From the sequence record MZ681930.1: a stretch of 64,000 bases of DNA. One strand, 5' to 3'. Source of the stretch: Enterobacteria phage phiC600P9. Position 1 is the first letter of the stretch, and the number at the start of each line of letters is the position of its first letter. Of this stretch, positions 31,687-62,887 are shown piece after piece. The notes beneath the pieces are model-generated. The model did not search any database, was not told where the DNA came from, and worked only from the letters and a program-made list of their open reading frames with translations. Both the position numbers and the translations under genes were made by a program.

Positions 31687-31863
31687 TTATGCTTTCTGCT
31701 TACCAAAACGAGAAGCATCATCTCGAAGAACCGCACGTGCTCGGCGCATGATCTTCTCAACAGTTTGATTGATACGAGAGTTCGACCCACGCTTGTAACC
31801 AGCGCGTTTAGAATCACCAACTTTCTTTTCAACTGCTTTCTTTGCTTTAGCTTGTTTTGCCAT
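31687..31863 (-). CDS. Small basic hypothetical protein (30.9-like)
   Basis: Lys/Arg-rich ORF MAKQAKAKKAVEKKVGDSKRAGYKRGS...; I prefer the internal ATG at 31863 over the ORF-track start at 31905. Confidence 0.5.
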   Translation of the reverse strand: MAKQAKAKKAVEKKVGDSKRAGYKRGSNSRINQTVEKIMRRARAVLRDDASRFGKQKA

Positions 31864-46408: not shown

Positions 46409-46636
46409 TTACTGCTCAATAAATCCTGTGTAAAATTCTACATCTTCAGCATCCATACCGTCACAATATTCATTAACCATAAATTGTTTAAGACGATTTA
46501 AAGGACCTTCAATAACAACTGAAACATTGCAATTGGGGTCATTTAGTGCGCTTGTAATACGGAGTTCAGGATAACGATTACGAATAATTTCTTCAATATA
46601 TTCAAAATCAACAACATCAATATCAATTTTAGCCAT
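46409..46636 (-). CDS. Small hypothetical protein, independently initiated ORF that is also in frame with gene 32
   Basis: ATG at 46636 preceded by aaagaggaaaataac gives 75 aa ([16 protein letters not shown]...). In this sequence it is in frame with, and not separated by a stop from, gene 32 upstream. Confidence 0.5.
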
Positions 46637-47587
46637 GTTATTTTCCTCTTTAATCATCATCAGCAGTATTGCCGATAGTTGTATAGTACCACAGTATGCT
46701 TTGAGGTCCGTGTCATCAGCACTAGATGAACTGCCAGAGCTTGAGCTCATAAAATCATCTTCAGTTTTTGTTTTGAAGTCATCAACATTGAATGCATCCA
46801 AATCATCAGCAACTTTATCGGCTTTCTTAGCAGCAGTTGCTGCGGCACCACCCATAGCAGCAGTTCCCATAACTTGACTGAACTTAGTGCTCAGTTCTTC
46901 AAACGATTTGAATTTATCTTTAGAAGTCATTTCAGAAAGGTCAACCATCTGTTCAAACAGTTCTTTCTGGAAAGATTCATCATCAATGTTTGGAATCGCA
47001 GATTGATTCAGGAATTTAGATTCGTCGTAGTTACTAAAACCAGAAACTTGTTTAACTTTCAGTACAAAGTTAGCACCTTCCCACGGACAAGTTACATCAA
47101 CCGGAGTTTCACCCATTTCAACATCAACTGCAATCATTGCATTGATTTTATCCCAGATTTTCTTACCAAAACGGTATTTAAATACTTTACCTTCATTTTC
47201 TGGAGCAGCTGGGTCTTTTACTACAAGAATGTTAGCCCAATAAGAAGTTTTGCGTTTAACAAGACTGTACTCTTTATTGTCAGTGTTGTACAAATCATTT
47301 TTACTGATATACTGACATACTGGACAAGAATCGTAATCACCGTGGGTAGATGAACAGTTTTCAATATACCATTTACCATTTTTCTTGAAACCGTGATTTA
47401 CAAGAATTGCGAATGGTGCTTGTTCATCATTTTTAGACGGAAGAAAACGAATTACTGCTTGACCGTTACCCGCATTGTCGAGTTTCAGTTTCCACTCGCC
47501 TTTATCTTCAGAAGAAAAACCACCTTTATTTCCAGCCAGTTTAGCCATTTGTGCAGCGAGTTCAGCAGTAGATTTACGTTTAAACAT
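46409..47587 (-). CDS. 32: Single-stranded DNA-binding protein gp32, as encoded here without its own stop codon (392-aa read-through ORF)
   Basis: The first 294 aa match T4 gp32 as recalled (zinc site, OB fold, serine-rich tail [15 protein letters not shown]), but the expected ending DDLLNDL-stop is replaced by ...[22 protein letters not shown] and the frame continues into the next ORF. Confidence 0.8.
46674..46703. repeat. 30-nt motif gatagttgtatagtaccacagtatgctttg, copy A, at the gene 32 3' junction
   Basis: 29 of 30 nt identical to 62836-62865; partial matches at 39281-39293 and 32586-32609. Confidence 0.8.
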
Positions 47588-62802: not shown

Positions 62803-62835
62803 TTTCTAATCTCCGTAATTCTGTATCAGTAGTTG

Positions 62836-62865
62836 ATAGTTGTATAGTACCACAGAATGCTTTGG
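62836..62865. repeat. 30-nt motif gatagttgtatagtaccacagaatgctttg, copy B, upstream of motA and adjacent to a hairpin
   Basis: 29 of 30 nt identical to 46674-46703; immediately followed by hairpin ggagagc-cgag-gctctcc at 62865-62882. Confidence 0.8.
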
Positions 62866-62887
62866 AGAGCCGAGGCTCTCCCTAAAA

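Follow-up and report, generated by a model that had tools for sequence, protein, structure and literature searches.

Gene 32 is open into frd.3 in the deposited sequence

The window analysed here is a 64,000-nt stretch of DNA from Enterobacteria phage phiC600P9, a T4-like Tequatrovirus (sequence record MZ681930.1). At 46409..47587, its minus strand carries an ORF of 392 aa with no stop codon at the end of gene 32, and this ORF was confirmed in the deposited sequence. The initial annotation had described gene 32 as reading in frame into a downstream 75-aa ORF, and Pfam searches bore this out by recovering both parts: the DNA-binding core of gp32 (PF08804) at residues 40-240 (E = 1.3e-66) and a complete Frd.3 domain (PF05798, Phage_FRD3) at residues 318-392. 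The shared part of the ORF was 99% identical to the canonical 302-aa gp32 over 75% of the query (protein match P0003). Two further matches from metaclust, P0002 and P0005 (528 and 440 aa), combined a very high score with coverage of 23-24% of the query and 10-15 unrelated Pfam families each; they look like chimeric or repetitive database entries. A 221-aa fragment (P0031), 99% identical to gp32, is filed as an Enterococcus faecalis hypothetical protein, which suggests that a T4-like phage contaminated a bacterial assembly.

The body of gene 32 occupies 46704..47587 (minus strand), as delimited by PF08804 and by alignment to phage KIT06; it comprises codons 1-294 and Leu-295 and lacks the last seven codons and the stop. 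The match to canonical gp32 continues to ...SSSSADDTD(L), after which DDLLNDL and the stop are missing. Thus the acidic end ...DDTDLDDLLNDL followed by a stop, which closes gp32 at about 301-302 aa, was not found here; the native part ends at D294/L295 and the frame stays open to residue 392. The Leu-295 codon (CTC, bases 46705-46703, minus strand) straddles a joint at 46703..46704 on the same strand, here termed scar A, whose position was set by alignments, by the boundaries of VecScreen-style blastn matches and by simulated excision.

On the other side of scar A lies what is left of the frd.3 early promoter (46672..46703, minus strand): the spacer and the extended -10 TGTGGTACTAT, with the -10 TACTAT at 46683-46688 (minus strand); the -35 GTTTAC is gone. 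The ORF crosses this stretch as a 22-codon linker (46637..46702, minus strand) made of normally untranslated promoter and 5'-UTR DNA, which includes the frd.3 Shine-Dalgarno sequence AAAGAGG. The remaining two frames across the linker DNA meet stops within 14-17 codons. The frd.3 gene itself, a 75-aa ORF with its stop, follows at 46409..46636 (minus strand). Its ATG at 46636 had been credited with its own Shine-Dalgarno sequence, and rightly so: AAAGAGG precedes a full-length Frd.3 whose 75-residue domain matched PF05798 from position 1 to 75 of 75 (E = 4e-33). All intact relatives have it as a gene of its own, annotated as a separate CDS in KIT06, GRNsp7, pSs-1 and phage 132.

Intact relatives carry about 106 nt more at gene 32

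Alignment to T4-like relatives, which the initial annotation had proposed, showed that the 3' end of gene 32 has been lost. Relative to intact Tequatroviruses the window lacks 106 nt; in about 490 related genomes this site is longer by 105-106 nt. Gone with the missing 106 nt are the DDLLNDL codons, the stops TAA TAG and the hairpin of the terminator, as well as an AT-rich block and the -35 of the frd.3 promoter, GTTTAC. In intact genomes, the order between 46703 and 46704 is GGATGACC..., the hairpin GGGGACCCTAGAGGTCCCC, a T-rich block and ...GTTTACAAC. The sequence on either side of scar A is 99-100% identical to that of intact relatives such as KIT06, in which the canonical frd.3 promoter GTTTACAACCAAAGCATACTGTGGTACTAT is present. 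Other early promoters in the window retain GTTTAC.

A second block is missing upstream of motA

A repeated 30-nt motif had been noticed next to the junction. The repeat is real; the coordinates given for it (46674-46703) were off by 2 nt, and the motif lies at 46672-46701. Its second copy is found at 62833-62862 on the minus strand with three mismatches, where 0 matches are expected by chance. What repeats is the spacer and extended -10 (TGTGGTACTAT) of an early promoter of the T4 type. The junction had also been placed at the very start of the motif; it directly adjoins it, and the joint itself is 46703/46704.

The second copy is the remnant of the motA early promoter (62833..62862, minus strand), likewise without its -35. 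It lies beside a second joint, scar B (62864..62866, minus strand), whose exact position is ambiguous within CC and where intact relatives have the 42 nt CCCTTTTTTATTTCAAAATTTTTTTCACAAAACGGTTTACAA. On the far side, the motA.1 terminator hairpin GGGAGAGCCTCGGCTCTCC (62864..62882, minus strand) abuts the promoter spacer and its T-run is gone. As deposited, the 42-nt loss equals the T-run plus the -35 of the motA early promoter. Locus A (32-frd.3) and locus B (motA) are about 16 kb apart. In intact phages, the two loci share a near-identical cassette of about 80 nt, a stem-loop followed by an early promoter, of the PeSL type. We concluded that scars A and B have the same cause. Some product names in this group are implausible: the T4 MotA activator is called 'flagellar motor protein MotA' in related records (EO1 and GEP001 among them), where small ORFs also bear the names 'naphthalene 1,2-dioxygenase' and 'sugar ABC transporter permease', and a 58-aa ORF of phiC600P9 (window 31687-31863) is called 'glycogen branching enzyme'.

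The same joints occur in nine phages

The gene 32 junction was found in 11 records, which represent nine distinct phages isolated in at least six countries, together with the RefSeq copy of CrRp10 and a second phiC600P9 deposit. Four of the phages, namely phiC600P9, vB_Eco-B1.1 (Poland), GEP001 (China) and CrRp10 (France), lack 106 nt and have the in-frame 392-aa ORF. The other five, TB004 (Malaysia), Sfk20 (India), SP21535 (China), 11B_SA_NWU (South Africa) and EO1, lack 105 nt, and their gp32 is a non-fused protein of 310-311 aa. Related records with the same junction followed by a stop, which the initial annotation had named as evidence against its reading, thus exist. The 42-nt block at motA is gone in seven of the nine (the phiC600P9 window, B1.1, GEP001, CrRp10, TB004, Sfk20 and SP21535); EO1 and 11B_SA_NWU keep the block upstream of motA and have lost that at gene 32.

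These phages do not share one local haplotype. To the right of the joint, at least four types of promoter spacer can be told apart, each identical or nearly identical to that of intact KIT06, GRNsp7, phage 132 or pSs-1, and the left flanks also differ among the affected phages, with the nearest intact relatives matching up to the joint. A single ancient deletion spread by recombination was rejected on this ground. Published methods, available for four of the genomes, name CLC as the assembler for CrRp10 and Sfk20 and SPAdes for EO1 and 11B_SA_NWU, the latter two having been sequenced with different library kits and read lengths; a CLC assembler bug was dropped, as EO1 and 11B used SPAdes. Replication slippage or a hairpin-bridged deletion was rejected as well: DNA folds of the intact region showed the terminator hairpin only, with the ends unpaired, and there are no direct repeats at the joints. 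SegG homing endonuclease was also discarded; only two of the nine phages have segG, whose place is upstream of gene 32. Because a precise deletion recurred without an evident mechanism, another cause was sought.

The two phiC600P9 deposits offered a close comparison. The window equals positions 96002-160001 of MT630408.1 (phiC600P9) except for one base, 46704, which on the plus strand is A in the window and G in MT630408, giving the codon CTC (Leu) versus CCC (Pro). The exact protein of the window is QYW08368.1, from the second NCBI deposit of the phage. The deposits measure 164,663 bp (second) and 164,691 bp (MT630408.1), and this 28-bp difference lies outside the window. The protein cluster of the fusion contained the two NCBI phiC600P9 deposits only, and a look-up of contigs encoding the protein gave no entry. 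In the CrRp10 record MG775043.2, protein accessions of the AVX4806x series, later than the AUV596xx series of the neighbouring genes, are attached to the gp32 CDS and to two further small CDS, and the genome is 171.5 kb in the paper versus 168,403 bp in the record; these mismatches suggest that the sequence was edited between versions. Literature searches on phiC600P9, on gp32 together with frd.3, and on the interposon found nothing.

The missing blocks coincide with matches to a cloning cassette

When the intact 240-nt region was compared with plasmids, three records matched at query positions 57-165, with two copies each, and the plasmid match starts exactly at the first missing phage base. 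In the tagged plasmid pIPO2T, two inverted copies of the T4 fragment flank tetA(C), beside luxAB. This arrangement is an engineered cassette with the architecture of an Omega-type interposon or mini-Tn5. Each fragment begins after a linker (..GATCCGG), runs from TGGATGACC to ...GGTTTACAA and is followed by GCATAAAGCTT; similarity to the phage is lost after GGTTTACAA. The Omega interposon of Prentki and Krisch (1984) is said to hold a resistance gene between inverted T4 gene 32 terminators, and the mini-Tn5 cassettes of de Lorenzo et al. (1990) reportedly carry T4 gene 32 terminators too.

Intact phages were then compared by blastn with the pIPO2T cassette as a stand-in for the vector library, using the VecScreen parameters (reward 1, penalty -5, gap costs 3/3). 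A strong internal match in VecScreen has a cut-off score of 30. At gene 32 of KIT06, the match ran from TGGATG to GTTTACAA over 106 nt with a score of 100. GRNsp7, phage 132 and pSs-1 gave a 105-nt match at gene 32, TGGATG..GTTTACA, which is one base shorter because their next base is T. Upstream of motA, the match in KIT06 ran from CCCTTTTTT to GTTTACAA over 42 nt and had a raw score of 30. Where the motA-upstream block is kept, the score was 23 (11B_SA_NWU) or 24 (EO1, without dust masking; with dust there was no match). The blastn intervals equal the intervals missing from the nine affected records, each with its own local spacer, across four haplotypes. The 105/106 split thus tracks the local sequence, and the locus B block is absent only where the blastn score reaches 30, copies below the threshold being kept.

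Simulated excision reproduces every junction variant

Excision was simulated on KIT06 (slashes mark the joints). Cutting the exact interval gave GGACC/CCAAAGC at gene 32 and GGCTCT/CCAAAGC at motA, the strings of MT630408, B1.1, GEP001 and CrRp10. Shifting the interval by +1 gave GGACCT/CAAAGC at gene 32, as in the window, and left the string at motA unchanged; the two phiC600P9 deposits thus differ at one base in 64 kb because the excised interval was shifted by +1. Keeping the last base of the flagged interval gave GGACC/ACCAAAGC and GGCTCT/ACCAAAGC, matching TB004 at each of the two loci. Every junction variant was reproduced by such excisions. Concordant coordinate slips at two loci 16 kb apart indicate editing of finished sequence, not DNA metabolism.

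We therefore consider it very probable that the stop-less gene 32 is a curation scar, left when native, vector-like sequence was cut out, and that it does not encode a gp32-Frd.3 fusion protein. The coincidence of boundaries, the second site, the dependence on the score threshold and the off-by-one variants are direct observations. The sequence of events would be as follows. The T4 gene 32 terminator long ago became part of the Omega interposon and of the mini-Tn5 cassettes descended from it, and would in this way have come to be present in vector-contamination libraries. A screen of the finished genome, most likely at submission and with NCBI VecScreen/UniVec or a similar tool, would have flagged two stretches as vector, namely the 106-nt match at gene 32 and the 42-nt partial match upstream of motA, and both flagged blocks would have been removed by coordinates from the finished sequence. 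Removal of 106 nt would leave gene 32 in frame with frd.3, so that gene callers would report a 392-aa 'single-stranded DNA-binding protein'. We infer the agent or tool that made the cuts, as well as the presence of the segment in the reads; the screening step is deduced from the stand-in cassette pIPO2T and from VecScreen parameters and thresholds. The real phage would then have a 302-aa gp32 ending in ...DDTDLDDLLNDL and a stop, a rho-independent terminator, an early promoter and a separate 75-aa Frd.3, and its restored gene 32 region would read ...GACCTGGATGACCTTTTGAATGACCTTTAATAG, hairpin, GTTTACAA. We accordingly attribute the missing acidic end of gp32 to the excision and not to the phage.

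Alternative explanations

One rival reading is a real deletion recurring at PeSL terminator/early-promoter cassettes. Such a deletion would yield a functional gp32-Frd.3 fusion or an alternative gp32 tail, for example as a means of evading a host defence triggered by the gp32 tail or by the repeated cassette. The occurrence of the junction in nine phages from different laboratories and countries would fit, as would the joint involvement of both PeSL copies and the fact that T4-like phages are known to recombine at PeSLs (PMC4122927). Nor would the loss need to be lethal: the Dda-binding helix of gp32 comprises residues 248-270, and the last 21 residues (281-301) have been judged non-specific for Dda, without specific contacts (PMC11551737), so a phage with such a deletion would probably still be viable. 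Since the helix would remain intact, viability alone does not speak against a real deletion; the boundary evidence does. Both ends match the boundary of an artificial cloning fragment to the nucleotide, and identical endpoints occur on at least four unrelated haplotypes, where neither microhomology nor a structure links the ends. Moreover, the locus B block starts exactly where similarity to the gene 32 copy starts and is removed only at score 30, and off-by-one variants agree at two loci 16 kb apart in one record. The junction pattern also had 0 matches in IMG/VR and JGI metagenome contigs, a weak point given that IMG/VR has only three intact copies. Taken together, a real recurrent deletion appears very improbable. 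We give similarly little credence to the view that the junction is physically present, yielding either the gp32-Frd.3 fusion or a new gp32 tail of 16-17 residues, and coincides with the cloning boundary by chance.

Slightly less credible still is an error of sequencing or assembly, whether a coverage drop-out, a polymerase jump at the GC hairpin and AT-rich block, or mis-resolution of the ~80-nt repeat. The region does contain a strong hairpin and homopolymer runs, and in intact genomes a near-identical repeat is common to both loci. Against this, kits, read lengths and assemblers (CLC, SPAdes) vary among the affected genomes, and hundreds of genomes produced with the same tools are intact. 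The loss at locus A runs 64 nt past the repeat into unique sequence and ends at the cloning-fragment boundary, and variants of a coordinate-style, off-by-one kind would not be made by an assembler. Also dropped were escape from CRISPR or from a defence, excision in the manner of a MITE (TG...CA ends), cleavage of a BstNI site (CC^TGG) and a -1 frameshift on C CCC AAA, as the vector-fragment boundaries explain both ends and the second locus.

Discussion

We regard the stop-less gene 32 as a recurrent database artefact and not as a biological novelty. The initial annotation had left the choice between recombination and a sequence error. The latter was right in spirit, except that the change is the clean removal of a 106-nt block and not an indel or frameshift. 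Its further proposal, a 43-kDa gp32 whose 98-aa extension alters the interactions of the acidic C-terminus, is not supported: both breakpoints coincide with the boundaries of the vector copy, and a second vector-homologous block has been removed too. There is no evidence for an extended gp32, and the importance of the case lies in data quality. In about 2% of deposited Tequatrovirus genomes, an essential replication gene lacks its true end and its terminator, and the -35 region of one or two early promoters is missing as well. We advise that affected records be masked when gp32 C-termini, terminators, early promoters or PeSLs are mined, and that contamination screens whitelist the T4 gene 32 terminator for submissions of T4-like phages.

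Naming of frd.3 shows a related irregularity. The gene is called '(putative) single-stranded DNA-binding protein' in several intact genomes: IsaacDaniel (MW749000), HZ_ZJUN4 (PP216085), Killian (OQ446694), Kelasse (MW749001), JLBYU22 (OK272484), S2_01 (OP137232) and IME537 (MT179807). The name was probably transferred by similarity from the artificial 392-aa entries.

Compared with the canonical 32-frd.3 region of T4 and other Tequatroviruses, the window has the same flanks and differs in lacking the 106 nt that include the hairpin GGGGACCCTAGAGGTCCCC and its T-run. Both loci, when intact, are stem-loop and early-promoter cassettes of the kind described as PeSLs (Arbiol et al. 2010; Comeau et al. 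2014, PMC4122927). In PeSL events, homologous recombination exchanges or removes genes between cassettes, whereas here parts of the cassettes themselves are missing and the joints are without homology. Natural gene fusions and programmed readthrough likewise give one ORF over two Pfam families, but the linker in the present case is promoter and UTR DNA, and the same edit leaves a non-fused gp32 of 310-311 aa in five records. A further correspondence is with the Omega interposon and mini-Tn5 cassettes as represented by pIPO2T, which hold the same T4 fragment (TGGATGACC...GGTTTACAA) with boundaries identical to those of the block missing from the phages. Linker and vector DNA border the fragment in the cassette (..GATCCGG/ and /GCATAAAGCTT..), whereas in the phage the fragment is native, so that a vector match at this site is a false-positive contamination call.
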